Shown: positions 570-22,015, counted from the first letter of the stretch. The stretch: 33,258 nucleotides of DNA from Promethearchaeota archaeon (GCA_048940645.1 JBHLOI010000041.1:1-33258); one strand, 5' to 3'. Notes: generated by a model from the letters alone, not told the origin. Translations and numbers: made by a program.

Positions 570-947
570 TTAAACATTAATTGTATTAATTACTTTTTCA
601 ATATTATTAAATAATCTTTTTAAGGTAAAGGGTTTCTCTTTAAAACTTATTACTCCAATAGAAAGAGCTAGTTCCTTAATTGTTTGGTCAGCACTAGCAA
701 AAATTATTTTTGGTTTATATTCACTCGAGTCTTCTAAAATTTCTTTAGATGCATCAATTCCATTTTTAACAGGCATTCTATGATCCATAATGATAATATC
801 TGGCTTCTCTGAAAAATTATCATACATTTTAACAGCTTCATCTCCATCTTTAGCTAAACCAATTATATCATAACCATTTAGACTCAATGCTTTCTCATAG
901 AGTTTTCTTAATGAGAGATCATCTTCCACGATAAAAATTTTTACTAT
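570..947 (-). CDS. Stand-alone response regulator receiver domain (CheY-like)
   Basis: KIFIVEDD...IIIMDHRMPVKNG...FASA...KPF receiver motifs. The ORF track starts at GTG 929, but beta-strand 1 lies upstream; probable start is ATA at 947 behind AGGTGG. Confidence 0.88.
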   Translation of the reverse strand: MVKIFIVEDDLSLRKLYEKALSLNGYDIIGLAKDGDEAVKMYDNFSEKPDIIIMDHRMPVKNGIDASKEILEDSSEYKPKIIFASADQTIKELALSIGVISFKEKPFTLKRLFNNIEKVINTINV

Positions 948-1217
948 TTCAAACCACCTATTAATATAATGGAATCTTTAAGCATAAAAATCAAATATAA
1001 ATGAAATCAAATGATCTTTGACATATCTGTTAATAGATATGTGGTATAAAAACTACTAATTATGATATAAGATTACTTTTTTTATAATAATTTGTCTGCG
1101 TAATATAATTTCTTTTTTCTAAGGATAAATAATTCTTAACTGAATCTTAATCATTATACTATATTTAAATTATTTTGAAAATTCTAATTCATAGTTCTAA
1201 ATTTTAAATATTTAATC

Positions 1218-2231
1218 ATGAAAATTAGAATAACTGCTCCGTGTAGGATACACCTTTCACTGATTGATGAAAACGGATACACTGGTAGAGTAGATGGGGG
1301 AATTGGCCTAATGTTAGATCGCCCTAATGTTGTCTTTGAAGCAACTAATAATGCCAAAGAATTTAAAATAGAGGCCCATAAATATTATCGAGAATCAATA
1401 GAGGTTATCAATGAAAAAGCCTCAAAAGTATTTAAACTATTTAATATTAGCAATAAAAATTTTCATTTCAATCTAAAACGTTATTATCCTAGTCATGTAG
1501 GTTTAGGTTCAAAGACCCAATTATCTTTAGCAATTGCTATTGCTATTATTCTATTAAAAAATTTTAATCAAGTAACAATAAAAGAATTAACTAAAATTGT
1601 AGAAAGAGGGGGAACTTCTGGAATCGGTTGGCGCGGTTTTGATAAGGGAGGCTTTATTTTAGATGCGGGGCATGATTTTGGAAAGGGAAAAGAAAAAGAA
1701 ACTTTTTTGCCCTCTTCAGCCTCAAAATCTGCTGATCCTGCTCTGACAATTATTAGATATCCTATCCCAGAACATTGGAGATTTGTGCTTGTTATCCCAA
1801 ATATAGGAAAAGGAGCATACGGCGATGAGGAGATAAGTATATTTCAGAACTATGCACCAATTCCGAAAGAAGAAGTAAATGAAGTTTCTCATCAAATTTT
1901 AATGAAAGTTATCCCTGGAATAATAAAACAGGATTTAGAATGTTTTGGGGAAGGTATAAAAAGAATTCAGAATATTGGTTTTAAAAAAATTGAAATTAGT
2001 CTACAACACAATATTGTAAAAAGTATATTGAATTTTTTCGAAGAATATGGATTGAAAGCTTATGGTATGTCATCTTTTGGGCCTAGCGTAATAGGAATAA
2101 CTGAATCTGAATCTGAAGCTAATAATTTATTAAAACAAGTTCAAATACGATTGAAAGGAACAGGAGGACATATATATATTTGTAAACCTAACAACTATGG
2201 AGCTAAAATTGAATATTTAGATGATGATTAA
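1218..2231 (+). CDS. mptG: Beta-ribofuranosylaminobenzene 5'-phosphate (beta-RFA-P) synthase, GHMP family
   Basis: PCRIHLSLID..GRVDGGIG, HVGLGSKTQL, RGGTSGIG..GGFILDAGH and GMSSFGP motifs. Confidence 0.92.
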   Translation: MKIRITAPCRIHLSLIDENGYTGRVDGGIGLMLDRPNVVFEATNNAKEFKIEAHKYYRESIEVINEKASKVFKLFNISNKNFHFNLKRYYPSHVGLGSKTQLSLAIAIAIILLKNFNQVTIKELTKIVERGGTSGIGWRGFDKGGFILDAGHDFGKGKEKETFLPSSASKSADPALTIIRYPIPEHWRFVLVIPNIGKGAYGDEEISIFQNYAPIPKEEVNEVSHQILMKVIPGIIKQDLECFGEGIKRIQNIGFKKIEISLQHNIVKSILNFFEEYGLKAYGMSSFGPSVIGITESESEANNLLKQVQIRLKGTGGHIYICKPNNYGAKIEYLDDD

Positions 2232-2617
2232 TGTCAATAAATAATCATGAAAAGTTATTTTGTTCTGATCTGTCTGAAAGAGAAAGAGCTTGCTTTGAAA
2301 TAGGAATCAAATTAGGTGCACTTTATCATATATTATCCGGGCTTCCTATATCCTCAAATAAAGACACTATTAATTCTATTGAGAGAGGAATCGAAGCTTC
2401 TATATCTTGCCAACCATATGTTAAGAGTGTTAAAATAAAACTGGATAAAAATAAAATAATGGGAGATAAATCAACTGAATTTGCATATGATGAAATCTCA
2501 GGTAAAATAATTAAAGCAGCGATCGAAGTTGAATATAAATCAGTAAAAGTCCTAGCGAAAGTTGAGTGGATAGAAAAACTTGAATATCCATTAATGTATA
2601 TTGAAAAAATTACTTAA
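2231..2617 (+). CDS. mptD: Archaeal dihydroneopterin aldolase
   Basis: ERACFEIGIKLGALYH..G.P, QPYV and C-terminal YPLMYI motifs; TAATG stop/start coupling to mptG. Confidence 0.88.
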   Translation: MSINNHEKLFCSDLSERERACFEIGIKLGALYHILSGLPISSNKDTINSIERGIEASISCQPYVKSVKIKLDKNKIMGDKSTEFAYDEISGKIIKAAIEVEYKSVKVLAKVEWIEKLEYPLMYIEKIT

Positions 2618-3324
2618 ATGGATGATTTTAACTTAAAAATATATTCTTCTATAAGTTCTATAGCTTTAAATGCATCTTGATTTTTACCAAATCGTCTTAC
2701 ATTCTTAATATTTTCTTCGATTTTATTTCGAAAATCTGTAATTAAATCTTTATTATGTTTTTCAATGGCAATCTTCAACCTTGTGGTCAAAATTAATGTT
2801 TCTAAAGTTAAATTTTCAGCTCTATTAAAGAGTTTATAAGATTCTTTAATTTTTACCAGTGATAAAATATTTAATATAAATTTGGAAAGATTAATTTTTC
2901 CAAAAGTATCTTTCCTAGTATACTGTGATTCTTTTTTAATCTCGCAAAAGATTGTTGCCCACGCTTGATTAATATATGGAATTTTACTTATTGAATTATT
3001 AGACTTTTTAATGTCATAATAATTATAATATTCTATAGGGAAAATTCTATACTTTTCAGAGAGATGTAGTCCCTTCAGTGCTGCTAATGCATACAAAAAT
3101 ATATTTTCTACAAAATTTATGCAAATCAGAGAATTTTGTTTTAAGTTTTTATAAGTATTCGTATTAGGATAAGGCTCAATGCTTATTTCATTATTGTCAA
3201 TTATTCTAATTCCCATACACGACGTATTCGGAATAAGTTCATTTCTTTTAATTGAAAAGGTAGTAGCTAATATTTCATATAAATAACCTTTTTTAAGTCC
3301 AAGTTCTTGAATATTTCCATTCAT
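2614..3324 (-). CDS. DUF447 family protein (split-barrel, pterin-cluster associated)
   Basis: YEILATT...PN..CMGI...YPNTNTYKNL...FNRAENL.LE..I..TR pattern; pterin gene context. Confidence 0.75.
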   Translation of the reverse strand: MNGNIQELGLKKGYLYEILATTFSIKRNELIPNTSCMGIRIIDNNEISIEPYPNTNTYKNLKQNSLICINFVENIFLYALAALKGLHLSEKYRIFPIEYYNYYDIKKSNNSISKIPYINQAWATIFCEIKKESQYTRKDTFGKINLSKFILNILSLVKIKESYKLFNRAENLTLETLILTTRLKIAIEKHNKDLITDFRNKIEENIKNVRRFGKNQDAFKAIELIEEYIFKLKSSI

Positions 3325-3426
3325 TAATTAATTCAACTTTAAAAATAAACAGAATCTATAATTTACTCTAAATTCTTAAGCTAAAAAACTTTCTAAAATA
3401 ATATTTTGTTAATAAAAAAAAAGAAT

Positions 3427-3960
3427 TTATTTGAGTCTCTGTTCAGATAAATTAAGATGATCAGATTCTACCTCTACAAATGCTTCGAAAATCTCTTTCA
3501 CACGAGGATTTGAAGATTCAGATGCAGCTTGAGTATAAAATTTTATTGCTCTCTCTTCTCGAGAATGTGATTCTTCAAGATTAGGTTTATATTCAGAAGC
3601 ACATGCATCATATTTTGGTAGTTCCAATTTATCTAATTTAAGTATTTTTTTCCAGACAGAAGCATGTTCATTTTCTACTTTTGCTAAGATTTTAAATAAT
3701 TTTTGACCCTCGAGATTTGGAGTCTTATTACTTGCGCATTTATAGAAAATTGTATTAGATACCTCAACTTCTAAAGCCCTTTCAGCATTAGTTCGATCCT
3801 TATCATTAAGTTCAACATCCCAATCACCTGTGTCATCATAATCTTTAGCTTTGACCATATACTTTTTATAAGCCCCACAAAACGGACAACGACTTGGAGC
3901 CTTTTCCCCAATGTAAGCTTCTCCACAAATTTTACAGACAAATACATTTACAATAGTAAT
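3427..3960 (-). CDS. Rubrerythrin-like protein: N-terminal rubredoxin domain plus ferritin-like four-helix bundle
   Basis: In-frame CKICGEAYIGEKAPSRCPFCG upstream of the ORF-track ATG (3858); ALEVE, VENEH, REERA and VESDH diiron motifs; probable ATT start at 3960. Confidence 0.88.
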   Translation of the reverse strand: MTIVNVFVCKICGEAYIGEKAPSRCPFCGAYKKYMVKAKDYDDTGDWDVELNDKDRTNAERALEVEVSNTIFYKCASNKTPNLEGQKLFKILAKVENEHASVWKKILKLDKLELPKYDACASEYKPNLEESHSREERAIKFYTQAASESSNPRVKEIFEAFVEVESDHLNLSEQRLK

Positions 3961-4155
3961 TTTTTACACCCTAAATTTATATTTTTAATTATATTTATTT
4001 ATAATTTTAAAAATTCTAAGATTTAATTTAAATTTTAAGTTATAGAACTTTTAAGGTATTTAATTTCTTAAGCGATAGTGTTAAACTAATAAATATAAAA
4101 AGAATTGTTGTACTTTCATATATAGATAATTTCAAAAATATCTGATTTTAGTAGA

Positions 4156-5274
4156 ATGAGAAGATCTATATCTCAGCTCAATGTGAAAGTCGTAGGCATA
4201 GATCCTGGTTCACTTAGTTGGGATTTTTTTGGATTAGATAGCGATGAAATTATATTAGACGCTTCTATTCCTTCAAGAGAATTAATAAAAGAACCAAATA
4301 AAGCTATTTCTATCATTAAATCTATTGAAAATATTGATTTGATGGTTGCTCCAAGTGGATTTGGACTTCCTCTCAAAAAGGTCAATGAATTGACTGAAAA
4401 AGATATTTTTTTTACTCTTTTGAAATTTAATAAAGAAGATAAAAATAAATTAATAGGTTTAGGTGAAGTCTTACGCCTAATAAAGTCTGAAAAAATTCCT
4501 GGAGTAATTGTTCCTGGTGTCAAACATTTGCCCACCATTCCACGGTATAGAAAGATCAATAAAGTAGATATGGGTACAGCCGATAAGCTATGCTCCACAG
4601 TTACAGGAATTAGGGATCAAATGGAAAGATTAAATATTGGTCCTGAAAAAACTAATTTTATTATGGTCGAGATAGGGTACGGCTTTACAGCAGTTTTAGC
4701 AATAGAAAATGGTCAAATAATTGATGGGATTGGTGGATCCAATATTATGGGATTTAGAGCATGTGGTAGCCTTGATGGAGAACTTGCTTATCTTATTAAA
4801 ACAATTCAAAAGAAGAATATTTACAAGGGTGGAGTATCATATATTGCTGGATATGAAGATCTAAGTATAAAAGAAATTGCCTTATTAGCTGAAAGAGATG
4901 AACAAACCAATATTGCCCTGAATGCATACATTTCTAGTGTTAAGAAAGCAGTTTATGCGATCTCTTCTTCATTCTCTGAAAAACAGAAGATAAAGGAAAT
5001 TCTTATAGCAGGGAGAGGAGCTGATTTAAAGTATTTAAGAGAGAAGATTTTAGTAAATCTAAATGATATTGCTCCTGTGAAATTGATGAAATCATATAGT
5101 CACTTATCAAAACATGCTGCCCAAGGTGCTGCCTTCATAGCGAATGGATTGTTAGGAGGAAGATTTAAACCAATAATAGATAATTTAAAAATAAAAGAAG
5201 CGACAGGTTCAATTTTAGATGATATTTATATTCCATTTGATAAAAAAAAATTATTAAGTGATTTAAATTCCTAA
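4156..5274 (+). CDS. DUF1464 family ASKHA-fold (butyrate/acetate kinase-like) protein
   Basis: GIDPGS.SWD, APSGFG, NKVDMGTADK, GSLDGELAY and AAQGAAFIANG motifs; the start may be GTG at 4183. Confidence 0.85.
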   Translation: MRRSISQLNVKVVGIDPGSLSWDFFGLDSDEIILDASIPSRELIKEPNKAISIIKSIENIDLMVAPSGFGLPLKKVNELTEKDIFFTLLKFNKEDKNKLIGLGEVLRLIKSEKIPGVIVPGVKHLPTIPRYRKINKVDMGTADKLCSTVTGIRDQMERLNIGPEKTNFIMVEIGYGFTAVLAIENGQIIDGIGGSNIMGFRACGSLDGELAYLIKTIQKKNIYKGGVSYIAGYEDLSIKEIALLAERDEQTNIALNAYISSVKKAVYAISSSFSEKQKIKEILIAGRGADLKYLREKILVNLNDIAPVKLMKSYSHLSKHAAQGAAFIANGLLGGRFKPIIDNLKIKEATGSILDDIYIPFDKKKLLSDLNS

Positions 5275-6841
5275 AATTCTAATCATTACCGGTTTGAATA
5301 GTTATCCTCTAATAAAAAAAATAGTAAAACCTATCAAGAATTTAGAAATTGAAGTTTATAAAGCTCAGATTTCAATTTCAGCATTTCTATCAGAGGAGAT
5401 GGTAGATCAAATCATCTCTGAAATCCCAAGTTCTGATTATGAATTAATTTTACTTCCTGGTTTTGTACAATGGGATAGTACCTTATTAGAAAGGAAATAT
5501 TCCCTCAAAGTACGAAAAGGTCCTGAATTTGCCTCAGATTTACCAGTAGTCTTTGAAAACCTACAAAGTATTAATTTATCAAATAGAATTCCTGCTAATA
5601 AACTTATTGAGATTTCTGGTGAAAAAGAATATCAAGAAATCATTATAGAACAATATGAGATCGCAAAAAAGAATATATCTCATCACACGTTCTACATTAA
5701 TGAAAAAAAATCAGATCTGATAATAGGACGTAATTTACCTCCCCCCGTTATTGCTGAAATCGTTAACTGTACAGAGAGGAGTGATAAAAACATACTTAAA
5801 AAAGTAAAACACTATGTAGAATCTGGTGCTGATATTATAGATCTTGGTTGTGTTTCGAATAAACCTAATCCAAATAGAATTAAAGAAATTATTAACCTTA
5901 TCAGAAAAAATTTTAATATTTTAATTAGCATAGATTCAATGGAAAAAAATGAGATTTTTGCCGCAGTTGATGAAGACATTGATATGATTCTTAGTCTTGA
6001 TGCTGGAAACTATAAAACTTATTTGAGTTTACCTAAAGATATCCCTATAGTAATTTTACCCACAAACGTTAAAGCAGCCTATTTCCCTAATGAACCAGAA
6101 ACAAGAGTGAAAATATTATTTGAATTGATTAATGAACTTCATAACCATGGCTTCCAGAAATTAATTGCTGATCCATTATTAGAAACACCTATTTCTCCAG
6201 GAATTTGTAATTCTTTAGAAACCTACTTTTTATATAAAAAGAAAGTGACTAAAGAAAATTACACCAAATACGAATTACCGATGTTCTTTGGAATTTCAAA
6301 TGTGGTAGAACTAATGGATATCGATTCTGTTGGTATTAACGGGCTTTTGGCAAGTATTGCAATTGAATTAGATATGGGTGTTGTTTTCACTGTTGAGCAT
6401 AGCACTAAATTAATGGGAGGTGTAAGAGAGCTAAAAGATTGTATTAAGCTCAATTACTTAGCAAAAAATAAAAAGATGCCTCCGATAAATTTAGGAATTA
6501 GTATTTTTAAAGCTAAAAAGAAGAAATCCCAAAAAACACCGAAAATTGATCAAGAGGAAGCTATTATGGTAAAGGAAATAAATCTAGATTATTATCCTGA
6601 TAAAAAAGGGTATTTTAGGATATATATTAACCATTATGCTAAGAAAATATATGTATTATTTTATTCTAATGAACGTAAATTAGATCAAGTTTTTATAGGA
6701 AATGATGCAGAGTCTCTAAGTAAAAAAATTATTCAATTTAAACTAACTGATAATTTATATCATATAAATTACTTGGGAAGAGAGTTAAATAAAGCAGAGA
6801 ATTGCTTACTTATGGGTAAATCTTATATTCAAGATGAATAA
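5267..6841 (+). CDS. Dihydropteroate synthase-like protein (methanopterin-associated) with a C-terminal DUF4346-like domain
   Basis: KILIITG N-terminus, ILLPG, IAEIV, GADIIDLG, ISIDS, IADPLL, GISNVVELMDIDSVGINGLLA, D.KGYFRI and HINYLGREL.KAE motifs. ORF track gives TTG 5294; probable start is ATT at 5267. Confidence 0.87.
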   Translation: MPKILIITGLNSYPLIKKIVKPIKNLEIEVYKAQISISAFLSEEMVDQIISEIPSSDYELILLPGFVQWDSTLLERKYSLKVRKGPEFASDLPVVFENLQSINLSNRIPANKLIEISGEKEYQEIIIEQYEIAKKNISHHTFYINEKKSDLIIGRNLPPPVIAEIVNCTERSDKNILKKVKHYVESGADIIDLGCVSNKPNPNRIKEIINLIRKNFNILISIDSMEKNEIFAAVDEDIDMILSLDAGNYKTYLSLPKDIPIVILPTNVKAAYFPNEPETRVKILFELINELHNHGFQKLIADPLLETPISPGICNSLETYFLYKKKVTKENYTKYELPMFFGISNVVELMDIDSVGINGLLASIAIELDMGVVFTVEHSTKLMGGVRELKDCIKLNYLAKNKKMPPINLGISIFKAKKKKSQKTPKIDQEEAIMVKEINLDYYPDKKGYFRIYINHYAKKIYVLFYSNERKLDQVFIGNDAESLSKKIIQFKLTDNLYHINYLGRELNKAENCLLMGKSYIQDE

Positions 6842-6844
6842 CTA

Positions 6845-8749
6845 CTAAGATAATATTTCATCAATAATCCTTCCCTGAGACTCCGCCGGTTTTGGAATTT
6901 GGAGAAGATGGGCTAAGGTTGGAGCAACATCTATTAGATTAACTATTTTATTTAATTTAATTCCACTTTCTATGCCAGGACCATTCAAAATTAATGGAGC
7001 ACTAACAGTATAATTACCAAGTTTAGCATTAGGAAGATAATAAGCATGTGCAGCACAATTTACTTGAACGGGGTAAGCTTCTGGTTTCTTTAAGAGATCT
7101 GCCGGTTGTTCAGCAGGGTTTAACTTTTCTAATCTGTAGTCGAATAATTGATAAGACGGATTTAAAAAGTAGATAACGTCCCCAACTCTATCACCATTTT
7201 GACCCAAATCTTCAGCATCTTCCTTCTTAAGTGCGAGATTAATAATATTTTTCCCTGTATCTGGATCTTTTAATTGGTAAAGAGCTTCAATTATTTCATC
7301 TCTAACTGATTCATACTCATTAGAATTTACGATGCCCTGTGGGTCTCTTCCTTTTAGATTAACCCATATATATGGTGGTTCTAAATAAGGAAATGCTTTT
7401 GTTTTTTTCCAATCTAAAATGTAGTTTTTATTATTATCGTCTAATTTATAAGTTAATAAGTTATTTCTAATTAGAGTAGGTAAAGGATTTGCAACTCTCC
7501 ATGAGGGCATAGCACCATGATCGGAAAGAAGAACTACAATTGTTTCCTTATCTACACAAGACTCCATTAATAACTTTGTTAACTCATCTATAATTTTATA
7601 GGCGGTTTTAATATGCTGTCGAGCTTTTTTAGCTTTTTTTTCTGTAAATAATGGAGATTTTTCATATAGATATCCTAATGTCATATGGTTCACACTGTCC
7701 AATATATGAATATGAAAAAAACAAATATCCCAATCCATATAATTTTTCATAAATTTTATTGTATTTGCGAGAGTCAATGCTTCTTTTCTTGCTAATGATA
7801 AGAATTTTGGTATCTTACCTGAAATCATGTAATCTACTTTTTGTACCCTAGGGAGTTTATAAATAATAGCATTTCGAATAATTCTTTCTCCTAAAATTTC
7901 AGGATTAGTCCAGCCTTTTATATTATATAAATTAGTAAATTGAAGCTGTAAATTATTTCCATCAGGTGATATGTCTTTAATTTTTAATTTAAAAAGGCAA
8001 GGAAGTATCCCATAAATAGTAGAAATATCTCGCGAGATCCATTCACTCCATTCATCAATTTTTAGGATATGCCAAACTTTTCTCTTATTTAATTGAATCG
8101 CCAGAGAATTATAACCAGAACCTTCAGTGTCGATCAAATATGCTTTTAAAGGGTGAAACTCTCTAATATTTTTATTTTTTATTACTATTGAAATTTGAAG
8201 GTGTGGAGATAAGCTCTTTATATCTTCTTCTACTTCCTCAGCTAATTTTATTCTTAGAGATTTAATTGAGGCATCATTAGCGTATTTCATGGTGAAAGCT
8301 AAAGTTAGCTCCCTAGGGAGCGATTCAGGTAAAGGCCAAGTTAAGAGACTAATTCCGCCATTTTTTAAATTTCCGGGCCATCCTCCTGGATAATTTAACA
8401 CAAAAGATTTTAGTCTATTTTTATCAGCAACATCCCAAAAGTATTCTGCGTTACAGTATTTAGATAATGACGTCCTTGATCGAATTTTTAATCCATAATC
8501 TAAAGGTTCTCCTGGGATATGCATATAAAAACTTGTAGCTCCATGGATAGCTGTAGTGGCTCCAGTAGCAATTGTTGTCCAATTAGTAGGCGTGTCGCAA
8601 GGAGGGCATGAATAAGCTTCAGCCATCACTCCACCATCAATTAGAGCACCAATGTTAGGGATTAGACCCTCATTATAAAACTTTTTCAAAAGATAAGGTA
8701 TTGCTTGATCTATCCCTATTAATAAAAGTTTTTTAGGTGATATCGCCAT
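6845..8749 (-). CDS. Alkaline phosphatase superfamily protein (nucleotide pyrophosphatase/phosphodiesterase type)
   Basis: LIGIDQA, TPTNWTTIATG (Thr nucleophile), DSVNH, SDHG, VNLKGRDPQGIV and DVAPT motifs. Confidence 0.88.
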   Translation of the reverse strand: MAISPKKLLLIGIDQAIPYLLKKFYNEGLIPNIGALIDGGVMAEAYSCPPCDTPTNWTTIATGATTAIHGATSFYMHIPGEPLDYGLKIRSRTSLSKYCNAEYFWDVADKNRLKSFVLNYPGGWPGNLKNGGISLLTWPLPESLPRELTLAFTMKYANDASIKSLRIKLAEEVEEDIKSLSPHLQISIVIKNKNIREFHPLKAYLIDTEGSGYNSLAIQLNKRKVWHILKIDEWSEWISRDISTIYGILPCLFKLKIKDISPDGNNLQLQFTNLYNIKGWTNPEILGERIIRNAIIYKLPRVQKVDYMISGKIPKFLSLARKEALTLANTIKFMKNYMDWDICFFHIHILDSVNHMTLGYLYEKSPLFTEKKAKKARQHIKTAYKIIDELTKLLMESCVDKETIVVLLSDHGAMPSWRVANPLPTLIRNNLLTYKLDDNNKNYILDWKKTKAFPYLEPPYIWVNLKGRDPQGIVNSNEYESVRDEIIEALYQLKDPDTGKNIINLALKKEDAEDLGQNGDRVGDVIYFLNPSYQLFDYRLEKLNPAEQPADLLKKPEAYPVQVNCAAHAYYLPNAKLGNYTVSAPLILNGPGIESGIKLNKIVNLIDVAPTLAHLLQIPKPAESQGRIIDEILS

Positions 8750-8846
8750 AAATAACTTTTATTTATTAAAACCTAAATTAATTTCTATTTATATTTAAAT
8801 CATTAAAATTTAAAACCAGACAGTTTTAAATTAGAAAGACTCATAT

Positions 8847-8880
8847 TAGTAAACATATACTTATAGTAAACCTATACTTT
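8847..8880. promoter_or_regulatory. Tandem 17-bp direct repeat, each unit containing AGTA-N6-TACT; candidate operator
   Basis: TAGTAAACATATACTTA followed by TAGTAAACCTATACTTT (15/17 identical) just upstream of the GDH-CBS start, in a divergent intergenic region. Confidence 0.45.
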
Positions 8881-8895
8881 AAATGGATTTAGATT

Positions 8896-10761
8896 ATGAT
8901 TCCAAAAAATATGGATATATTTCTCAAGGAAAGACTTCCGGAAGCTACCCTTAAAACTCGACTTAAAAAAGAGAATGGAAGGTGCTATTTAGAATTTAGT
9001 AATCTAGATGTACATCTTCTTTCACGTTTAGGAGTTATTACTGATAAGGTTGGTCCTAAATTAGTTAGTTGTATGTGGGAGGAAAAATCTACATTAGAAA
9101 TTGGTGGATATTTGGTTGTAGATTCTCTTGCCATGGGAAGCCCTTCTATGGGAGGAATCCGAATGCTCCCAGATATCACTCCATCAGATATTTATAATTT
9201 AGCTCGTGGAATGACCCTTAAAAATGCAGCAGCTAATCTTCCATATGGGGGTGGAAAATCAGGCATAGTCGCAGAGAGAAAGCTCTCAAAAGAACAACAT
9301 GATGAGACAATTAAAGGATTTGCACGCTTAATCCAACGTTATAGAGAGATATATGTACCTGGACCTGATGTAGGAACTAATGATTCTGATATGAAAACAA
9401 TTGCGATTGAAAATGGACTAGATAGTGCTGTATCAAAACCAGCAGATATGGGTGGAAATCGTATTGATGAACTTGGAGCTGCTGCTGGAGGTGTAGTGAC
9501 CGCATTACAAAAATTGTTGGAAATAATGCCTAGATTGCGTGTTCTACCTCAATTCGCAAATTTGAAAATTCCAAAATTAGAAAAACTCACAATTTTAATT
9601 CAAGGTTTTGGAGCCGTTGGCGCTCATGCTGCACGTATACTAAAAGAAAGAATTCCACTAGTTAAAATTACAGGAATTAGTGATTTAGAAGGATATTTAT
9701 ATAATGAATCGGGTTTACCAGTATTAAAATTATATAATTTATGGAAAGAAGAGGGTCTTGTTACAACTTCCTATTTTCAGAGTGATATTATTTCAGAAGG
9801 TTATAAACATCCTACAAAATTCTCAACAAATTCAAATAATTTATTACTCGAAGATGGTTTTTGTTTAATTCCTGCAGCTCCTGTATTTAATTATTTGGGA
9901 GTATGGCCAACTGAAACGCCTTCAATGCTAGTAGAAAGAATGGGAAATTGGGCAGTAATAGTTGAGGGTGCAAATACATATTCTCCTGACCCAAATAGAA
10001 AAGCTGCTCGAATACGGATGGAACAAATTGTATATCGTGAAAAAGGAGTTATGATAGCAAATGATTATTTAGTAAATTCTGGGGGAGTAATCTATGCTGC
10101 CCAGGAACATTTAATAAAAACTCCTGATCATCTCCAAATACCTGAAGAATATCTTGGAAACCGTAAAGCTGTTGAAAATTGGTTAGCTAATTATGCTAAA
10201 GAATTTGAAGAATTATCAAAAAATCGTTTAATAGCCGGTGAGGGTTATAGAAAAGAGGTTATTAGCCGTAATATGATTGAATTAGTTGATATATTATCAA
10301 GAAACCCAGATATACTTCCTTTTTTTGCAGCAGAGAAGATAAGTCTGCAACGTCTAACAGCAAAAGAAAGTGAAAGAACAGCTAAAGATATTATGGTTCC
10401 AATACCTACTATTGATGTAAATAGGAGTGTTCAAGAAGCAGCATCATTAATGATTGAAAAAAATAGTGGAATAGTTGCTGTACTCTCTGAAAGTAAGCTT
10501 GTAGGAGTTATGACTGATTGGGATATTACCAAATCTACTGCTGAAGGCATACAAGATGTTTCGCTTGAAAAAATTATGACGAAAGAGGTAATTAGCGCTT
10601 CACCTGATTTTACAATTTTAGATATTATTCGAGAATTAGAACAATTTCAAATATCTGCAATGCCGGTAGTTAAAGATGGCGAAGTCTTAGGTAAGGTTAG
10701 CTCGGATTTAATTGCACAACGTTATATTTTAAACTATCTACAAACACATGAAAATTATTAA
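8896..10761 (+). CDS. Glu/Leu/Phe/Val dehydrogenase fused to a C-terminal CBS-domain pair
   Basis: GGIRM, MTLKNA..LPYGGGKSG, PGPDVGTN, QGFGAVG, VEGAN and NSGGV motifs; then AKDIM...LVGVMTDWDI...IMTKEVIS...MPVV..G.VLGKVS (two CBS domains). Confidence 0.9.
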   Translation: MIPKNMDIFLKERLPEATLKTRLKKENGRCYLEFSNLDVHLLSRLGVITDKVGPKLVSCMWEEKSTLEIGGYLVVDSLAMGSPSMGGIRMLPDITPSDIYNLARGMTLKNAAANLPYGGGKSGIVAERKLSKEQHDETIKGFARLIQRYREIYVPGPDVGTNDSDMKTIAIENGLDSAVSKPADMGGNRIDELGAAAGGVVTALQKLLEIMPRLRVLPQFANLKIPKLEKLTILIQGFGAVGAHAARILKERIPLVKITGISDLEGYLYNESGLPVLKLYNLWKEEGLVTTSYFQSDIISEGYKHPTKFSTNSNNLLLEDGFCLIPAAPVFNYLGVWPTETPSMLVERMGNWAVIVEGANTYSPDPNRKAARIRMEQIVYREKGVMIANDYLVNSGGVIYAAQEHLIKTPDHLQIPEEYLGNRKAVENWLANYAKEFEELSKNRLIAGEGYRKEVISRNMIELVDILSRNPDILPFFAAEKISLQRLTAKESERTAKDIMVPIPTIDVNRSVQEAASLMIEKNSGIVAVLSESKLVGVMTDWDITKSTAEGIQDVSLEKIMTKEVISASPDFTILDIIRELEQFQISAMPVVKDGEVLGKVSSDLIAQRYILNYLQTHENY

Positions 10762-10772
10762 ATTAGTTAACA

Positions 10773-11897
10773 TTAATAATATTTTACGATATTATATAAC
10801 GTATTTCTTTGAGCTGGTCGTTTCCCAGCACTTTTTATGATTTTGATGATTTCATCTGGTGATAAATATTCTCCAAATTCAGCACCAGCACTCTTAGAGA
10901 TATTTTCTTCCATTAATGTTCCTGAAAAATCATTGACTCCATAATTAAGAGATACTTGTGCAAATTTTGGTCCTAATTTTACCCACGAACATTGTAAATT
11001 ATCAATAGAATTATTAAAAAACAATCTTGCAACACAAAACAATTTCAAGTCTGCCATTCCATAGCTCGCTTGTAATGGAAAATCTTTTAATTTAACTAAC
11101 ATTGGCCTTTCTTTAACAAAGGGTAAAGGCACAAATTCAGTAAAACCATGGGTTTCTTTCTGAATATTTCTTATAATTTCTAAGTGCTTAATCCTATCTT
11201 CCAATTCTTCAATATGTCCATACATAATTGTTGATGTGGTGGGGATTCCTAAGTTATGAGCTATAGATATGATGTTGATCCATTCGGCAGTGCTTACTTT
11301 ATTTGGGCATATAATTTTTCTTATTTTATCAACTAAAATTTCAGCAGCAGTGCCAGGTATTGAATCTAAACCTGATTTTTTCAAAATTTTTAGAGTATCT
11401 TCAATGCTATTGCCTGATAATTTAGCCATATAATATATTTCTTGAGGTGAGAATGCGTGGATATGAATCTCTGGATTTACTTTTTTTACAGTTTTTAAAA
11501 TATCTAGATAAAAATCAAATTTTATTTTAGGATGTATACCACCTTGAATACATACTTCAGAACAGCCGTTAATATGTGCTTGCTGAACTTTCTTTCTTAC
11601 TTCCTCGATGGTTAATAAAAATCCTTCTTTATTTGTAATAGGAACACTGAAGGAACAAAATTTACAACCTTTTTGGCAAATATTTGTAAAATTTATATTC
11701 CTGTTTATTACAAATGTGACTACATTCTGCTTTTTCTTGAAACAAATTTCATCTGCCGTAGCTTGTAATGCTCTAAATTCTTTTCCAGTCACCTTAAGCA
11801 GTTCTAAAGCTTCTTGAGAAGTAATTTCTTCTGATTCGAGACTCTTCTTCAATATTGATTTAATCTTTTGCCTAATTTGACTATAAATCTGTACCAT
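10773..11897 (-). CDS. cofH: FO synthase subunit 2 (radical SAM)
   Basis: VTFVINRNINFTNICQKGCKFCSF, IQGG.HP, PGTAAEIL, QCSWVKLG and NDFSGTLMEENIS motifs; adjacent to cofG. Confidence 0.92.
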   Translation of the reverse strand: MVQIYSQIRQKIKSILKKSLESEEITSQEALELLKVTGKEFRALQATADEICFKKKQNVVTFVINRNINFTNICQKGCKFCSFSVPITNKEGFLLTIEEVRKKVQQAHINGCSEVCIQGGIHPKIKFDFYLDILKTVKKVNPEIHIHAFSPQEIYYMAKLSGNSIEDTLKILKKSGLDSIPGTAAEILVDKIRKIICPNKVSTAEWINIISIAHNLGIPTTSTIMYGHIEELEDRIKHLEIIRNIQKETHGFTEFVPLPFVKERPMLVKLKDFPLQASYGMADLKLFCVARLFFNNSIDNLQCSWVKLGPKFAQVSLNYGVNDFSGTLMEENISKSAGAEFGEYLSPDEIIKIIKSAGKRPAQRNTLYNIVKYY

Positions 11898-12993
11898 TTA
11901 AATTAATATTATCTATAATTTTTTTAATATTTACTGGACAGAATTCCGATTTTTGTATATATTTTTCATAAATTGGAAATCTTTCTCTTAGTTTATAACC
12001 TAAGTTACTACAAATACTTTTTAAATTATTAATTTGAGGCCATAAATGATCAGGATTGATATAATCAATTGTAAATGGAGATATACCTCCAAAATCATTG
12101 ATTCCCAACTCGATTGCTTCTTTCTCATATCCTCGTATTAAATTAGGTGGTACTTGGATGGCAATCTCGTTTCCTAATATAAGTTTTGCAATACCAGCTA
12201 TTTTTAGAGTTTCTTCAATAGATATAGGATTTTCTGGATGATATTGAATTCCTTCTTTTCCTACAAAATTTTGTATTATTACTTCTTGAATATGACCATA
12301 ATCTTCATAAATTTCTTTGATTAAGTTAAGATCTTTAATCCTATCCTCAAATTTTTCACCAATGCCTAGTAATAAACCTGTGGTGAACGGAATTTTTAAC
12401 TTTCCCGCATTCTTAATATGTTCTATTCTTTTTTCTGGTAATTTACCTGGCGATAACTCATGAACTCTTCCTCTTTTAAACAATTCTAAGCTAGTGCTTT
12501 CCAACATTAATCCCATACTGGCATTGAAATTTTTTAGTTTTTCCAATTCCTCAAAAGTCAGTACTCCAATATTACTATGAGGTAACAGTTTAAAATCTAA
12601 AAGATAAGAACAAAGAAAGATAATAAACTGTACATAATCATCATGTTTTCTCTTTTTTAATTCTCGTTTAACCTCGATGAAATTATCTGGCCTTTCTCCA
12701 GACATCAACAAGGCTTCCTTACAATTTGACTTTACGGCTTTTTGAATTAGTCTAATAATTTGTTCATTACCTAAAAGAATAACATTACCTTTGCCATCTA
12801 ATTTAGGAACTTTATAATTATAAAAACAATACTTACATTCATTTTGGCAATAATTTGATAAAGATAAGGTAAAGTTTTTTGAAAACGTAATAATATGTCG
12901 GCTCTCATTTGGTAATGAAGACTTTATCTCTCTTACCTTTTCTTTTAGTTTTCTTATTGAAAGATTTTTATAATAATCTACATTTTTGCTCAT
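11881..12993 (-). CDS. cofG: FO synthase subunit 1 (radical SAM)
   Basis: TFSKN...C.NECKYC, ASMGLMLE, PFTTGLLLGIGE, GHIQEVIIQNF, QVPPNL and DFGGISP.T.DYINP..WP motifs. Confidence 0.93.
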   Translation of the reverse strand: MSKNVDYYKNLSIRKLKEKVREIKSSLPNESRHIITFSKNFTLSLSNYCQNECKYCFYNYKVPKLDGKGNVILLGNEQIIRLIQKAVKSNCKEALLMSGERPDNFIEVKRELKKRKHDDYVQFIIFLCSYLLDFKLLPHSNIGVLTFEELEKLKNFNASMGLMLESTSLELFKRGRVHELSPGKLPEKRIEHIKNAGKLKIPFTTGLLLGIGEKFEDRIKDLNLIKEIYEDYGHIQEVIIQNFVGKEGIQYHPENPISIEETLKIAGIAKLILGNEIAIQVPPNLIRGYEKEAIELGINDFGGISPFTIDYINPDHLWPQINNLKSICSNLGYKLRERFPIYEKYIQKSEFCPVNIKKIIDNINLNGTDL

Positions 12994-12994
12994 T

Positions 12995-13660
12995 TTACCA
13001 TCTTTTATACTTTAAAATGACATAATTTTTTCGGTGATTAAGATCGATGAGTTTGAACCTTTGAGCTTGGCCCATTTTATCAAAACCCACGCCTTCAGCT
13101 AATGTAATGGAATCCTTTCCTCCTATAACCCATGGTGCTATAGTTAGCCTTATTTCATCCACTAAATCTTCCTTAATAAAACTCCAATTTAGATTTCCTC
13201 CACCTTCTAGAAGAATAGATTTAATCCCTAAATTATATAGATTTGACATTGACTTTTTAAGATCTACATGTAAACCTTTTCCGTTCCTCATTATTTTTAT
13301 GTTTCTAGCTTCAAATTGTTTAACTTTTTCTTGAGGTACATTTTCTGTAGCACATATTACTGTAGGATAAGTTTCTGGCTTATAAGTTATCACCTGTGAA
13401 TCAATTGGAATAGATAAGTTACTGTCTACAACAATACGATAATAACCATTATGTTCATAAAATTTAATATGAAGTTTAGGATTATCCTTTAAAATCGTAT
13501 TTTTTCCGACCATAATCGCATCTACTTGAGTTCTGAGTTTATGAACATCTTTCCAATCCTTTTCATCTGATATTTCAGAATCCCCCTCTTTTGAGGAAAT
13601 CTTCCCATCTATCGTCATGGCTGCATTTAAAATAATATAAGGTTTTTTAACGTTTTTCAT
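12995..13660 (-). CDS. arfC: 2,5-diamino-6-(ribosylamino)-4(3H)-pyrimidinone 5'-phosphate reductase (archaeal RibD reductase domain)
   Basis: PYIILNAAMTIDGKI, VHKLR..DAIMVG..TILKDNP.L and LLEGGG.LNWS motifs; no deaminase domain; start is ATG 13660 or TTG 13666. Confidence 0.9.
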   Translation of the reverse strand: MKNVKKPYIILNAAMTIDGKISSKEGDSEISDEKDWKDVHKLRTQVDAIMVGKNTILKDNPKLHIKFYEHNGYYRIVVDSNLSIPIDSQVITYKPETYPTVICATENVPQEKVKQFEARNIKIMRNGKGLHVDLKKSMSNLYNLGIKSILLEGGGNLNWSFIKEDLVDEIRLTIAPWVIGGKDSITLAEGVGFDKMGQAQRFKLIDLNHRKNYVILKYKRW

Positions 13661-14810
13661 GAACAAGTTTACCCCTTACATATGTTTTTTTAATATTAAA
13701 TGAATTAGTTCTTCCAATGATTAATGCATAAAACGTATCAATATCTAATTTTGGTGTATAGTAATTAGGATTATTTAAATCAATTATAAAGAAATTCGCA
13801 CTTTTCCCTTCTGATATCGAACCAATCTGACCTTCGACATTAAAGATTTTAGCAGCTTTAATTGTAACCATCTTTAGCAAATCTTTGCCGGTTATTTTTA
13901 TGTTCCTGTCCATCACTCTTAAGATCCGGTATAAATACCGCAATTCTTCAAATAAATCAGGACTATTAGCCATTATATTATCTGTTCCGATCGCTAAGGG
14001 TATTTTTAATTTTAAAATTTTATTTATTGGTGGAAAACCAGCTCCAAAATATCCATTACAACGTGGACATAATATTAGGGAATTTTGTTTTTGTTCTAAA
14101 AGTTTTAAATCTTTTTCAATAAAATGAGTTCCATGAATAAATATATCGACAATATTATCATTAAAAATTTGATTTACTAAATCATTATCCCTTTCTAACT
14201 CAGCAACATGACAAGCAACAATTTTTCCAGAAATCTGTTTACATTTTCTTAGGGCTTTTTTAACTTCTGGATTAATATTTTTATAACTTGGTAAACCCAT
14301 CCCATCTGCTAATTGGAAAATCTTTTTAATCTCGTCTTTCTCTCTATATCTTCCTAGAACTAAAGAATTAATGATTTTTTCTCTTTTTATAGCTTCATTT
14401 AAAATTTTTAGTCCGTCAACTCCCCCTTCCCTAAAATCGATAAAAGAAGTAATTCCATTTGATAATATTTCTAATATTGATTTTTTAATTCCTTCTATTA
14501 TCACTTCTTTTCGAGTTTCATTTAATAGGAGATGCTTAATACCATTTGGAGGTGCGACGACTTCTTTTAAAGGTTTATTAAACCCTTGTTCCTTAGCAAA
14601 ACTATCTCCAATATGAATATGAGAATTGATCAATCCGGGTACTAATAATAAATTTGAGCTTTTATCTGAAAGTTGGATAGTATCTCCTACATTCTTATAT
14701 GAAATACTCTTAAAATTACCATTTTCATTAATTAGAATTTTAATATCTTTTTTTAATTCTAAGTTATCACCAATTAAACCATAATTGCTAAAAATTTCTG
14801 AACTGTACAT
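13647..14810 (-). CDS. Metal-dependent amidohydrolase (cytosine/guanine deaminase-like)
   Basis: PGLINSHIHIGDS, HVAE, IHGTH, CPRCN and GTDN motifs; overlaps the arfC start. Confidence 0.88.
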   Translation of the reverse strand: MYSSEIFSNYGLIGDNLELKKDIKILINENGNFKSISYKNVGDTIQLSDKSSNLLLVPGLINSHIHIGDSFAKEQGFNKPLKEVVAPPNGIKHLLLNETRKEVIIEGIKKSILEILSNGITSFIDFREGGVDGLKILNEAIKREKIINSLVLGRYREKDEIKKIFQLADGMGLPSYKNINPEVKKALRKCKQISGKIVACHVAELERDNDLVNQIFNDNIVDIFIHGTHFIEKDLKLLEQKQNSLILCPRCNGYFGAGFPPINKILKLKIPLAIGTDNIMANSPDLFEELRYLYRILRVMDRNIKITGKDLLKMVTIKAAKIFNVEGQIGSISEGKSANFFIIDLNNPNYYTPKLDIDTFYALIIGRTNSFNIKKTYVRGKLVHEKR

Positions 14811-14906
14811 AAAGAAAAAAATTATTTTTACATTATTTCAAAAAATAATTTAATTGAATAATAATTATTAGAATTGGTAAAAGCAAATAAATTTCGGTGA
14901 TTTTTA

Positions 14907-15866
14907 ATCAATCTGTTTAGAAAGGATTTACAAGACTCAATTTCGACAATAGACATTCCTATAGATAAAGTAGGAATTGTAGGAGTAGAAAAAAAAGTAG
15001 ATATTGTTCAAGAAAATAAAAAATATTCTTTTTATCCTAAAATTTCAGCATTAATTTCATTACCTAGTCACAAAAGAGGAATCCATATGTCTCGAACATC
15101 TGAAACTATTGAGGAAATCATAAATGAAGTAATATTCAAGCCAACTCCCTCTGTAGAAGTAGTAGGAGATAGGATTGCTCGAAAATTATTACAAAAACAT
15201 TCATATACAGAAAAAGTTGAAGTCAAATTAGAGGGTAAAATTATAGTCCAAGCAAAAGATGATAAGCAACGAACAATACAAAAAGCATATAATATTACTT
15301 CATTTGTGAAAGCTTGGAAGAACCAACAGAAAAAGATTGATTTTAATTACTTCATTGGAGCAAGCGCCATCGGAATGACAGTTTGTCCTTGTGCAAAGGA
15401 AATGAGTCAAGAGTATGCTGAAGAAATTATTAAAAATAGAAGTGATATAAATATTCCTGATGATACAGTACAAAAACTTCTCAACATTTTACCTTTTAGT
15501 TCACATAATCAAAGATCGAATGGAACTATAATAGTGCAAATAAAGGATTTAAATAATCATAAGATTGATGTGTTAGATATTATCGAAATTATTGAAGATT
15601 CTATGAGCGGAAAAATGCAATCTGTATTAAAAAGACCAGAAGAAGCTAAACTTGTCAGAAGTGCTCATTTAAAACCATTATTTGCTGAAGATGTAATTAG
15701 GGAAATGGCAAAGAATTTTATTATAAGAGATTTTCCAAATTTAGAGGATAATTTTAAAGTTATCTTTAAAATTGAGAGTTTTGAATCTATTCATCCGCAT
15801 AATGTTTATGCAGAATTAGTGACTACTATTGGAGATTTAAGAAATAATATCAAATTAATAGAATAA
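14907..15866 (+). CDS. mptA: GTP cyclohydrolase MptA (FolE2/GCYH-IB family)
   Basis: In-frame DLQ...IPIDKVGIVGV...KRGIHMSR lies upstream of the ORF-track ATG (15087, which is the internal HMSR Met); GMTVCPCA, HNQRS, LKRPEE, FAEDVIR and ESIHPHN motifs; probable start is ATC 14907 or CTG 14913 behind GGTGA. Confidence 0.9.
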   Translation: MNLFRKDLQDSISTIDIPIDKVGIVGVEKKVDIVQENKKYSFYPKISALISLPSHKRGIHMSRTSETIEEIINEVIFKPTPSVEVVGDRIARKLLQKHSYTEKVEVKLEGKIIVQAKDDKQRTIQKAYNITSFVKAWKNQQKKIDFNYFIGASAIGMTVCPCAKEMSQEYAEEIIKNRSDINIPDDTVQKLLNILPFSSHNQRSNGTIIVQIKDLNNHKIDVLDIIEIIEDSMSGKMQSVLKRPEEAKLVRSAHLKPLFAEDVIREMAKNFIIRDFPNLEDNFKVIFKIESFESIHPHNVYAELVTTIGDLRNNIKLIE

Positions 15867-17076: not shown

Positions 17077-17883
17077 TTATTCATCATATTCTAAATAGGC
17101 AGGTTTACCTTCAATAATTGGATTCATAAATTCCAAAATCTCCGGTAACATTCTCACATCTAAATACCCTTTAATATCAAATGGTACTGAAAACCACTTC
17201 TTTGTTTTAAAATTTGCACGATAGATTTCAAATCCCAATGAAGTGCCATCAATTTGATACGGATCTATAACTAGCGCAATTGCTTTATCCCATAATTTTT
17301 GATATCTTGCTTGAGTTCCTAAATCTTCTTTAGACATAAAGCATCCATATGAAGGATGGGAGTGATACCAACCACAAATAAATAGATTGTGTTTTTTTAT
17401 ATCTTTAAATGCTCTCACATAATTTTTATAATCTTTTATTTCAGCATAAACTGCTGTACCATGTCCCATTGGATAGGCATCTTCCACATGGAGAACTCCT
17501 TTAGCATTATCAAACTTTCCAGCGAGCAATCCTATCACTTCAACCCATTTCTGTCTTCGAATTTTAGAATGAGCGTATTTTAATGAATGACTAGCTATCT
17601 TAAGGATAGTTTTTATTGTTACAGCTATATGTGCTTCAGCTCTATCATTATTAGCATAAGTTATTACTGGTTCCATTGGTATAGGTTCAAGTTTAACTTT
17701 AACTTTTTCTGAATGCCCTAATGGCTGGGTTTCAATAAGTTCGGAAGTTAATTCTTCCCTTAATTCTTCTTCTAATTGTAATTCGGTATATATCTCTTCA
17801 AGTAATTCTTTTTTAATTTTTTCTTTAATTTTTTGTTTTATTGCTTCTTTGATTGAATTGCTATTTTTCTCGTCTATATTCAT
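17077..17883 (-). CDS. JAB1/MPN+ (JAMM) metalloprotease, Rpn11/CSN5-like deconjugase
   Basis: EVIGLLAG and GWYHSHPSYGCFMSKEDLGTQ JAMM motif, ALVIDP; charged N-terminal extension. Confidence 0.92.
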   Translation of the reverse strand: MNIDEKNSNSIKEAIKQKIKEKIKKELLEEIYTELQLEEELREELTSELIETQPLGHSEKVKVKLEPIPMEPVITYANNDRAEAHIAVTIKTILKIASHSLKYAHSKIRRQKWVEVIGLLAGKFDNAKGVLHVEDAYPMGHGTAVYAEIKDYKNYVRAFKDIKKHNLFICGWYHSHPSYGCFMSKEDLGTQARYQKLWDKAIALVIDPYQIDGTSLGFEIYRANFKTKKWFSVPFDIKGYLDVRMLPEILEFMNPIIEGKPAYLEYDE

Positions 17884-17890
17884 TATAATT

Positions 17891-18418
17891 TCACCACTTA
17901 TTCTTAGCGTACTTCTTTACTAAATTTTTAACTTTTTTCTCGAAAAATTTAGGATTTTTCATCATTTCTATTGCTGCTTTTTTATTAAAAACATCTGTTG
18001 GATTTACAAATTTACCTCGGGTATTTAACATAGCAATTATTGCTTGGACTACTGTAACAGCAGTTTTTGAAGGACTCCATCCACCTTTTTTACCAATTAA
18101 GGAAGGATCTACTAATGCTAGACAAATATTCCTCTGACCTTTGTATTCACTTGGTTTTGGCCAAAAATTTGGATGCCAAATCGGAGTATGCATTCTTACA
18201 AAAGGTGGTTGCTTAGGATACTGAACAGGGAATCTCATTTCTAGTTTAAAAAGTCCTCCTGCAAAAGCAGTACCTTTAGGCCCCTTAATTGTGATAGCTA
18301 AATGATCAATGCTCTTCTTTTTAGAATCAAACGGTTTTAATTGAACTATAGTACCAACTTTAAGCATTTTTTTTAATCCAGCAAAATCACGGGAAACGCG
18401 ACTACTTCTTATACTCAT
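17891..18418 (-). CDS. Ubiquitin-conjugating enzyme E2 (UBC fold)
   Basis: ITIKGPKGTAFAGGLFKLEMRFPVQYPKQPPFVRMHTPIWHPN...ICL...WSPS...VVQAIIAML; catalytic Cys99. Confidence 0.93.
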   Translation of the reverse strand: MSIRSSRVSRDFAGLKKMLKVGTIVQLKPFDSKKKSIDHLAITIKGPKGTAFAGGLFKLEMRFPVQYPKQPPFVRMHTPIWHPNFWPKPSEYKGQRNICLALVDPSLIGKKGGWSPSKTAVTVVQAIIAMLNTRGKFVNPTDVFNKKAAIEMMKNPKFFEKKVKNLVKKYAKNKW

Positions 18419-18522
18419 TTTCTCAACCCTTTTTGTTTTTCTTTATTTTTATAATAAAATTTTTCTCTTTTATATATGTTTTTTTCATTAAACTTTTATA
18501 AAATATATTTTTAACTAAAATT

Positions 18523-19758: not shown

Positions 19759-19769
19759 TAATAATAATT

Positions 19770-19823
19770 AAAAAAAAAAAAAAAAATGAAGAGCTTAATG
19801 CCTTCATATTATAATTTATGAAG
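19770..19823 (-). terminator. Intra-operon oligo-T tract (T17 on the minus strand) preceded by short hairpins
   Basis: A17 at 19770-19786; CTTCATA/TATGAAG stem (19802-19823); alternative TGAAG/CTTCA stem (19787-19806); lies between the Ubl stop and the E1 start. Confidence 0.5.
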
Positions 19824-19837
19824 AAAATTATATAAGT

Positions 19838-20164: not shown

Positions 20165-20245
20165 TTATTTCACGACTTTTTTATTATTTTGTAATTTTTT
20201 ATTTTTTAAGTTTAATAAAATCGCATTAAAACGATATTATAAAAC

Positions 20246-20270
20246 CCATTGGAATGAATTTGAAGTTTTT
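20246..20270 (-). repeat. 25-bp element, copy 1 (inverted repeat partner of 21109-21133)
   Basis: CCATTGGAATGAATTTGAAGTTTTT is the exact reverse complement of 21109-21133. Confidence 0.9.
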
Positions 20271-20432
20271 TTAGTTTTTACTAAAAATAAAAAGAAACTT
20301 ATTTGGATGCTTAAGAAATTATATTATAAATTGAATGAATGCCTAATAATTATATAAGGTGTAAAATAATGTTGCAGAAAGAATATATATTTACAAAATC
20401 GAAATATTTTAACAATATAAAAGTATAGTCTT

Positions 20433-21104: not shown

Positions 21105-21108
21105 ACAT

Positions 21109-21999: not shown

Positions 22000-22015
22000 T
22001 AGGATAAGGATTTTT

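Follow-up and report, generated by a model that had tools for sequence, protein, structure and literature searches.

Where does a gene begin when none of the codons ATG, GTG and TTG is available ahead of its conserved N-terminal residues? This question is raised by four genes of a 33,258-nucleotide stretch of DNA from a Promethearchaeota archaeon (GCA_048940645.1, JBHLOI010000041.1:1-33258), hereafter the window, which is contig C80 of a metagenome-assembled genome (MAG; genome label G000). The genes encode a single-domain response regulator (the receiver), a rubrerythrin, a DHPS-like pterin-binding protein and the MptA/FolE2 GTP cyclohydrolase. A first-pass annotation had proposed that they initiate at ATA, ATT or ATC, here written together as ATH (AUH in the messenger) and set apart from the canonical ATG, GTG and TTG. 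Based on the sequence evidence described below, we consider it very likely that translation of all four begins at a near-cognate AUH codon: AUA in the receiver gene, AUU in those of the rubrerythrin and the DHPS-like protein, and AUC in mptA. Moreover, several dozen additional genes across the genome, including that of the initiation factor aIF1, would most probably start at ATT, ATA or ATC behind a strong ribosome-binding site. The source MAG (3.83 Mb, 29.8% GC) belongs to the Lokiarchaeia, within the Asgard archaea, and MptA orthologues with 70-97% identity all come from MAGs labelled Promethearchaeota or Lokiarchaeia; the window organism is an Asgard archaeon, not a methanogen.

Start regions of the four genes

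In all four genes, no canonical codon occurs between the upstream in-frame stop and the residues of the N-terminal Pfam domain, and an ATH codon is found 6-7 nt after a GGTG or GTG motif, which is the same spacing as that of canonical starts. Two canonical starts of the window serve as comparators, both on the minus strand: GGTG-N7-ATG at 22432-22446 (ATG at 22432-22430), and GGTG-N8-ATG at 17883-17898 (ATG at 17883-17881), the latter in a JAB/MPN protease gene. These spacings were correctly given in the first-pass annotation, as were all coordinates of the four genes, their motifs and their starts.

Judged by the domain residues that lie upstream of the first canonical codon, the case is strongest for the rubrerythrin and MptA. 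The rubrerythrin gene (3427..3960, minus strand, 177 aa) would start with ATT at 3960-3958; its AGGGTG motif (3972-3967) is followed by an in-frame TAA (3966-3964) and an AAA spacer, so that GGTG ends 6 nt before ATT. The first canonical codon, an ATG at 3858, lies past the entire RUBY_RBDX rubredoxin-like CxxC...CxxC domain (PF21349, residues 7-34), which precedes the ferritin-like domain (PF02915, residues 60-170). This N-terminal rubredoxin-like arrangement is of the reverse type, opposite to that of the classical rubrerythrin 9fj2. The mptA gene (14907..15866, plus strand, 319 aa), with ATC at 14907, is preceded by CGGTGA (14895-14900), whose TGA (14898-14900) is itself the in-frame stop, and by a TTT TTA spacer that places the end of GGTG 7 nt before ATC. 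Only when the gene is read from this ATC does its product cover profile positions 2-260 of 260 of GCHY-1 (PF02649, E 4e-61) with residues 6-302; residues 5-75 also match residues 12-83 in an alignment with the solved structure of FolE2, 2r5r. ATG at 15087, the first canonical codon, stands 60 codons in and encodes the Met of the conserved G-x-H-M-S-R motif, and a start there would remove 55 residues of the GCHY-1 domain.

The two remaining genes are weaker cases. The receiver gene (570..947, minus strand, 125 aa), with ATA at 947-945 and its stop at 572-570, has an upstream in-frame TAA at 980-978 and the Shine-Dalgarno motif AGGTGG at 959-954, separated from ATA by 6 nt (TTTGAA), or 7 nt when counted from the GGTG core. 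Counted from ATA, residues 4-116 correspond to profile positions 1-110 of 111 of PF00072, a complete domain with both beta-strand 1 and the acidic pair. Initiation at the first canonical codon, GTG at 929-927, would delete beta-strand 1 (KIFI), with a loss of just 3-4 profile positions. The gene of the DHPS-like protein (5267..6841, plus strand, 524 aa), which comprises DUF6513, Pterin_bind and DUF4346, has a partial Shine-Dalgarno motif (AAGTGAT, 5256-5262) and an in-frame TAA (5264-5266) directly before ATT at 5267. DUF6513 begins at residue 3 counted from this ATT, and 8 of its profile positions would be lost from the first canonical codon, TTG at 5294. In addition, this start overlaps the 3' end of the upstream DUF1464 gene, whose stop is at 5272-5274.

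Conservation of the start column in orthologues

The start regions were then compared with those of orthologues. In 60 mptA loci from independently assembled MAGs, the codon located 5-7 nt past GGTGA is mostly ATT; the nearest relatives have ATC, one locus each has ATA and GTT, and ATG is found in four species (L022, L027, L050 and L057), whose proteins begin with MHQFKK or MPFK, as compared to IHQFKK. Many of the 60 loci lack any canonical codon for 50-60 codons, and the GGTGA-type motif ahead of ATT or ATC is kept in most of them. Among the rubrerythrin genes, ATT is retained in 9 of 9 same-genus orthologues (10 sequences with the window gene); two of these carry a TAA between the motif and ATT and have no canonical codon for 45 codons, and one has an ATG one codon ahead of the ATT column. 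For the DHPS-like protein, 'AGTGATTTAA ATT' is kept in approximately 20 same-genus genomes, with 22 codons free of canonical codons, while other Lokiarchaeia families have ATG at, or adjoining, the aligned column (MKKILIVTG vs IPKILIITG). The receiver column, in 20 same-genus orthologues, holds ATA in 11, ATC in two, ATT in one, ATG in five and TTG in one, with a GGTG-type motif 6-7 nt upstream in most of them. Overall, the start column is conserved and interchangeable with canonical start codons in orthologues, the rubrerythrin column being ATT throughout. The use of AUH starts appears to be common to dozens of related Lokiarchaeia MAGs and strongest in the family of this genome, in agreement with the proposal of the first-pass annotation that it characterizes the lineage.

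These comparative data bear directly on the possibility that an ATG was turned into ATH by an assembly or sequencing error, or by recent pseudogenisation. The MAG is indeed fragmented, with 126 contigs, and 89.6% complete, which would favor such artifacts. Nevertheless, the same ATH codons are present in dozens of MAGs assembled independently in different studies, the reading frames are intact and conserved, and the changes are confined to start codons that follow a Shine-Dalgarno motif. The comparison across MAGs therefore excludes assembly error and pseudogenes, to which we assign a negligible probability.

The evolution of the mptA region was also evaluated. Along the 54-codon stretch that runs from DLQ up to the ATG, codon differences were synonymous in 891 cases and non-synonymous in 532, and there were 1177 changes at third positions, as compared to 451 and 241 at the other two. 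The 40 codons past the ATG display the same substitution pattern. As the codons preceding the ATG evolve like coding sequence, this region is therefore translated. These results have to be set against a second alternative, in which the genes start at the downstream canonical codons (GTG 929, ATG 3858, TTG 5294 and ATG 15087) and the upstream sequence is an untranslated relic. Gene finders restricted to ATG, GTG and TTG return exactly these models, and a rubrerythrin truncated to 143 aa, with NCBI as its source, is present in a public protein collection. Yet, the resulting products would be devoid of the whole rubredoxin-like domain and of 55 residues of the MptA fold, including those aligned with FolE2; the upstream codons of mptA are under purifying selection at the protein level; many orthologues offer no canonical codon for 45-60 codons; and the ATG of mptA encodes an internal residue of a motif. 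We regard initiation at the downstream codons as very improbable.

Initiation at AUH also agrees with what is found in databases. NCBI names the homologues MptA, and its records of relatives cover the full length and assign M to the ATT or ATC codon, whereas the proteins in ENA, JGI and Logan are shortened to varying extents; the 259-aa truncated MptA of this genome was not found in the protein collection searched. The systematic truncation by gene callers that had been anticipated is real, as the 143-aa rubrerythrin and the shortened ENA, JGI and Logan proteins demonstrate, but not universal, given the full-length NCBI entries.

Genome-wide distribution of ATH starts

In this genome, canonical starts follow a GGTGA-type motif, and the preferred distance from GGTG to ATG is 7-8 nt. 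To extend the analysis to the whole genome, we took Shine-Dalgarno sites with no canonical start within 3-12 nt, located ahead of the first canonical codon of open reading frames (ORFs) of at least 100 codons. Just three of the 61 triplets peak 5-8 nt after these unexplained sites, with a maximum at 7 nt: ATT (49 observed, 18 expected, z 7.0), ATA (28 observed, 9 expected, z 6.0) and ATC (13 observed, 5 expected, z 3.3). Triplets of like composition (AAT, TAT, TTA, TTT and AAA) showed no enrichment genome-wide at 5-8 nt. Moreover, of 97 ATH codons located 6-8 nt from the motif, 75 share the frame of the long ORF, and the two remaining frames hold 14 and 8. In total, there are 90 ATH matches, all four window genes among them, which is approximately 58 above background and corresponds to about 2% of the long ORFs. 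ATH codons also account for an increasing share of the starts led by a Shine-Dalgarno motif as the motif becomes longer, from 21% (at least 5 nt) to 32% (at least 6 nt) and 36% (at least 7 nt), which fits a strong motif compensating for a weak codon. We estimate that AUH initiation extends in this genome to at least about 60 genes, or one fifth to one third of the genes with a strong Shine-Dalgarno motif.

Two earlier versions of the test were uninformative: triplet counts after every Shine-Dalgarno-like 5-mer were swamped by motifs within coding regions, and the fraction of pre-canonical codons with a motif was diluted, as well as confounded by spacer codons ahead of true ATG starts. Both were remedied by filtering out the motifs explained by a canonical start. 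A codon log-odds score, independent of the motif, yielded approximately 125 excess ORFs with coding-like pre-canonical sequence; it was not relied on, being weak (0.14 nat per codon) and taking in antisense and broken ORFs.

As an independent control, 20 further candidates, picked by motif and distance alone, were checked against Pfam: in 13 the domain begins ahead of the first canonical codon, five were uninformative, two belong to no family, and none contradicts an ATH start. Among these 13 are three HdrD-like Fe-S proteins, MvhD/FlpD, ETF-alpha, a nitroreductase, a GPN-loop GTPase and a Rag/Gtr-like GTPase. Initiation at ATT, ATA and ATC finds support in the orthologues of all four window genes, in the genome-wide spacing and frame, and in the Pfam controls; what is observed directly is that canonical starts are lacking, that the motif keeps its spacing, that one frame is preferred, and that the codon is conserved and interchanges with ATG.

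Some additional features were noted in the course of this survey. In the Rag/Gtr-like small GTPase (contig C107:21979-22884, plus strand) and the GPN-loop GTPase (C120:731-1504, plus strand), ATT stands behind a Shine-Dalgarno motif and the P-loop lies upstream of the first canonical start, being absent from gene models limited to ATG, GTG and TTG. Regarding other codons, ACG has four matches 7 nt after motifs of at least 5 nt, with near-zero background, and CTG shows a small excess, which hints at occasional use of other near-cognate codons. In long ORFs, a Shine-Dalgarno match of at least 5 nt accompanies only approximately 14% of the first ATG codons, and most genes in this genome seem to start without such a motif; half of the ATH starts detected, in a search based on the motif, have a motif of at least 6 nt.

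The position of the peak is also relevant to a third alternative, re-initiation, in which ribosomes would start at a GTG or TTG in or beside the motif, stop immediately and restart on a nearby ATH with relaxed codon choice. Suitable mini-ORFs are present (GTG-TAA ahead of the rubrerythrin ATT, GTG-ATT-TAA ahead of that of the DHPS-like protein, TTG-TGA ahead of the aIF1 ATT, and an 8-codon TTG...TGA ahead of the mptA ATC). Furthermore, the ATT of the DHPS-like gene overlaps the stop of the upstream gene, and in relatives that lack the intervening stop, the GTG is in frame with the gene. On the other hand, GGTGA holds both GTG and TGA, so that mini-ORFs arise automatically; the GTG of the motif has no Shine-Dalgarno sequence of its own; at the genome-wide peak of 7 nt this GTG is out of frame with ATH; and the receiver gene contains no such in-frame mini-ORF. 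Re-initiation therefore has, in our view, a slim chance of accounting for these starts, and direct initiation at AUH is retained as the preferred interpretation.

Initiation machinery, gene context and known systems

The components of the initiation machinery that could be identified are ordinary. The initiator tRNA gene is located on contig C43 (plus strand, from approximately 12090) and displays A1:U72, a GGG:CCC anticodon stem and a CAU anticodon; it is interrupted by two introns, in the anticodon loop and in the T-arm region, and is otherwise canonical. ARAGORN reported only 13-17 tRNAs, a low number due to introns, and Rfam 30; both missed the initiator, which was recovered by a pattern search. 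No initiator-like anticodon arm with another anticodon was found in this limited pattern search, the tRNA set of the assembly being incomplete. A search of the assembly did not find a 16S rRNA in this MAG, and the 16S 3' end of a same-genus genome is GGAUCACCUCCU, with an ordinary anti-Shine-Dalgarno sequence. A plausible mechanism is that the GGTGA-type motif pairs with the 16S end GGAUCACCUCCU and would thereby place the P site approximately 7 nt downstream of the motif, where the ordinary initiator Met-tRNA (CAU) would pair with the first two bases of the codon, the mismatch at the third base being tolerated. The tRNA used and the N-terminal residue, as well as the efficiency and any regulation of these starts, are what we infer from the sequence. 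As for the relaxed selection of the third codon position put forward in the first-pass annotation, it is best seen as a deduction: the initiator tRNA and the same-genus 16S 3' end are canonical, and the ATT start of aIF1 is suggestive.

A fourth alternative is that another non-canonical codon close by is used (TTA or CTG in mptA; GTA, or ATT/ATC, in the receiver gene), or that an elongator tRNA initiates with Ile as the first residue. Each proposed start does have several near-cognate codons close by, a few codons away at most, and the weak genome-wide excesses of CTG and ACG point in the same direction. Nevertheless, conservation in orthologues, with exchange for ATG or TTG, is limited to the ATH column, a clear spacing peak exists for ATT, ATA and ATC only, and the canonical initiator tRNA, together with the lack of an alternative anticodon arm in the limited pattern search of this incomplete tRNA set, offers no support for a different tRNA. 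Initiation at a neighboring codon, or with Ile, is accordingly given very little credence.

The gene of aIF1 (SUI1, PF01253; contig C43:35933-36271, minus strand, locus L153/L154) is itself a probable case. No canonical codon precedes its CxxC...CxC zinc knuckle; the first one is codon 43, which falls within the SUI1 domain. An ATT is found 9-10 nt after GGTTGTGA. This ATT is conserved in family f1, in which the orthologue L161 has no canonical start codon anywhere in its ORF, and in three other families the equivalent codon is ATA; aIF1 probably begins at ATT in the family of this genome. It has been reported that aIF1 discriminates against AUU in Saccharolobus in vitro, and that bacterial infC uses AUU for autocontrol (PMC4705826). 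On these grounds, and by analogy with infC, the synthesis of aIF1 is probably self-limiting, and AUH-start genes would respond jointly to the level of aIF1. One may go further and imagine a 'stringency regulon' of start codons in Lokiarchaeia, in which dozens of AUU, AUA and AUC genes would be governed by a strong Shine-Dalgarno motif and by the aIF1 level, with aIF1 limiting itself through its AUU start; we put this forward tentatively. Equally speculative is its membership, which would comprise redox and cofactor enzymes, small GTPases and aIF1 itself. If true, it would be an archaeal counterpart of infC autocontrol and of the poor-context autoregulation of eIF1, among the closest known relatives of eukaryotes. 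An aIF1 that starts with AUU suggests that the stringency of initiation is under feedback control in archaea, bacteria and eukaryotes alike.

Several points weigh against the interpretation proposed here. Approximately one third of the 90 genome-wide ATH matches are expected as background, and, since this set was found via the Shine-Dalgarno motif, the claimed dependence of AUH starts on the motif is partly circular. In some orthologues of the rubrerythrin, the DHPS-like protein and the receiver, translation could instead use a GTG, TTG or ATG that lies in frame close to the motif, and in this genome a slightly shorter product may be made from the GTG of the receiver (+6 codons) or the TTG of the DHPS-like protein (+9 codons). 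Lastly, aIF1 starts with ATG or TTG in genera g2, g8 and g9 of family f2 and in family f6. As this concerns several other Lokiarchaeia families, the aIF1 loop therefore cannot explain the habit everywhere. The family of the cultured Lokiarchaeia strains is one in which aIF1 begins with ATG or TTG, and AUH starts may be less prominent in it.

Regarding the gene context, positions 1218-15866 of the window hold a cluster for the biosynthesis of methanopterin/F420-type cofactors, with a GHMP-kinase-like gene, an archaeal dihydroneopterin aldolase (PF04038), DUF447, DUF1464, the DHPS-like pterin-binding gene, two radical-SAM CofG/H-like genes, RibD_C, an amidohydrolase and MptA. This cluster includes two of the four ATH-start genes. 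A ubiquitin-like modifier system occupies 17077-22480 and is composed of the JAB/MPN protease (17080-17883), a ThiF-type E1 (18526-19758) and a ubiquitin-family protein (22019-22432), all on the minus strand. An FtsZ/tubulin-family gene (27954-29090) and an alanyl-tRNA synthetase gene (30085-33138) follow on the plus strand. The latter, at the window end, has candidate ATT and ATA starts, but its Pfam domain begins far downstream, making it uninformative.

These starts have practical consequences, as callers limited to ATG, GTG and TTG strip N-terminal domains from a few per cent of Lokiarchaeia genes. The domains lost here include Fe-S and rubredoxin-like domains, the P-loops of Rag/Gtr-like and GPN-loop GTPases, and the zinc knuckle of aIF1. 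Such truncated models distort structure prediction, expression constructs and phylogenies, and Lokiarchaeia proteins are being mined for eukaryotic signature functions. Public data already hold the phenomenon implicitly, in the M that NCBI places on ATT or ATC and in the truncated entries found elsewhere. Third-position near-cognate initiation at such frequency is not described for archaea in the literature searched, which contained no systematic account of these starts, the single remark being one on atubA.

That remark, made in a methods section, concerns the tubulin gene atubA in a MAG of the Heimdallarchaeia (Kariarchaeaceae), for which a 'rare ATT start codon' was proposed (PMC13394414). 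As in our genes, the deposited protein of this Asgard gene lacks its first beta-strand, which an upstream ATT at a plausible distance from a ribosome-binding site restores; unlike the present work, the remark is restricted to a single gene, from a different Asgard class, and comes with neither a genome-wide nor a comparative analysis. AUH starts are absent from reviews of archaeal initiation (PMC7531240, PMC6237735). The initiation described in them for P. abyssi and S. solfataricus resembles that inferred here in its GGTGA-type motif, its optimum of about 7 nt, and its canonical anti-Shine-Dalgarno and initiator tRNA, and differs in that the archaeal AUG/GUG/UUG starts deviate at the first codon position, whereas AUH mismatches at the third. 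As aIF1 of Saccharolobus rejects AUU in vitro (PMC4705826), AUH starts at this frequency are unexpected from model systems.

The closest parallel is bacterial infC (PMC4705826), in which AUU likewise stands behind a Shine-Dalgarno sequence and, as for aIF1 here, the gene of the factor that rejects such starts itself begins with AUU; the factor in Lokiarchaeia is nonetheless aIF1, of the eIF1/SUI1 family, instead of IF3, and its autoregulation would be deduced by analogy. Compared with isolated cases in E. coli, the starts described here involve dozens of genes per genome and three codons (ATT > ATA > ATC), conserved across an archaeal class. One of those isolated cases is E. coli pcnB, which has an AUU start. 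The start list of NCBI translation table 11 allows ATT, ATC and ATA, and AUN starts occur in mitochondria and Mollicutes. The same three initiators are met here, and NCBI annotation already uses them for some MptA orthologues. Unlike those listings and the organelle or reduced-genome cases, we find them in a free-living archaeal lineage and strongly linked to long Shine-Dalgarno motifs. The phenomenon is a lineage-wide variant of near-cognate initiation.

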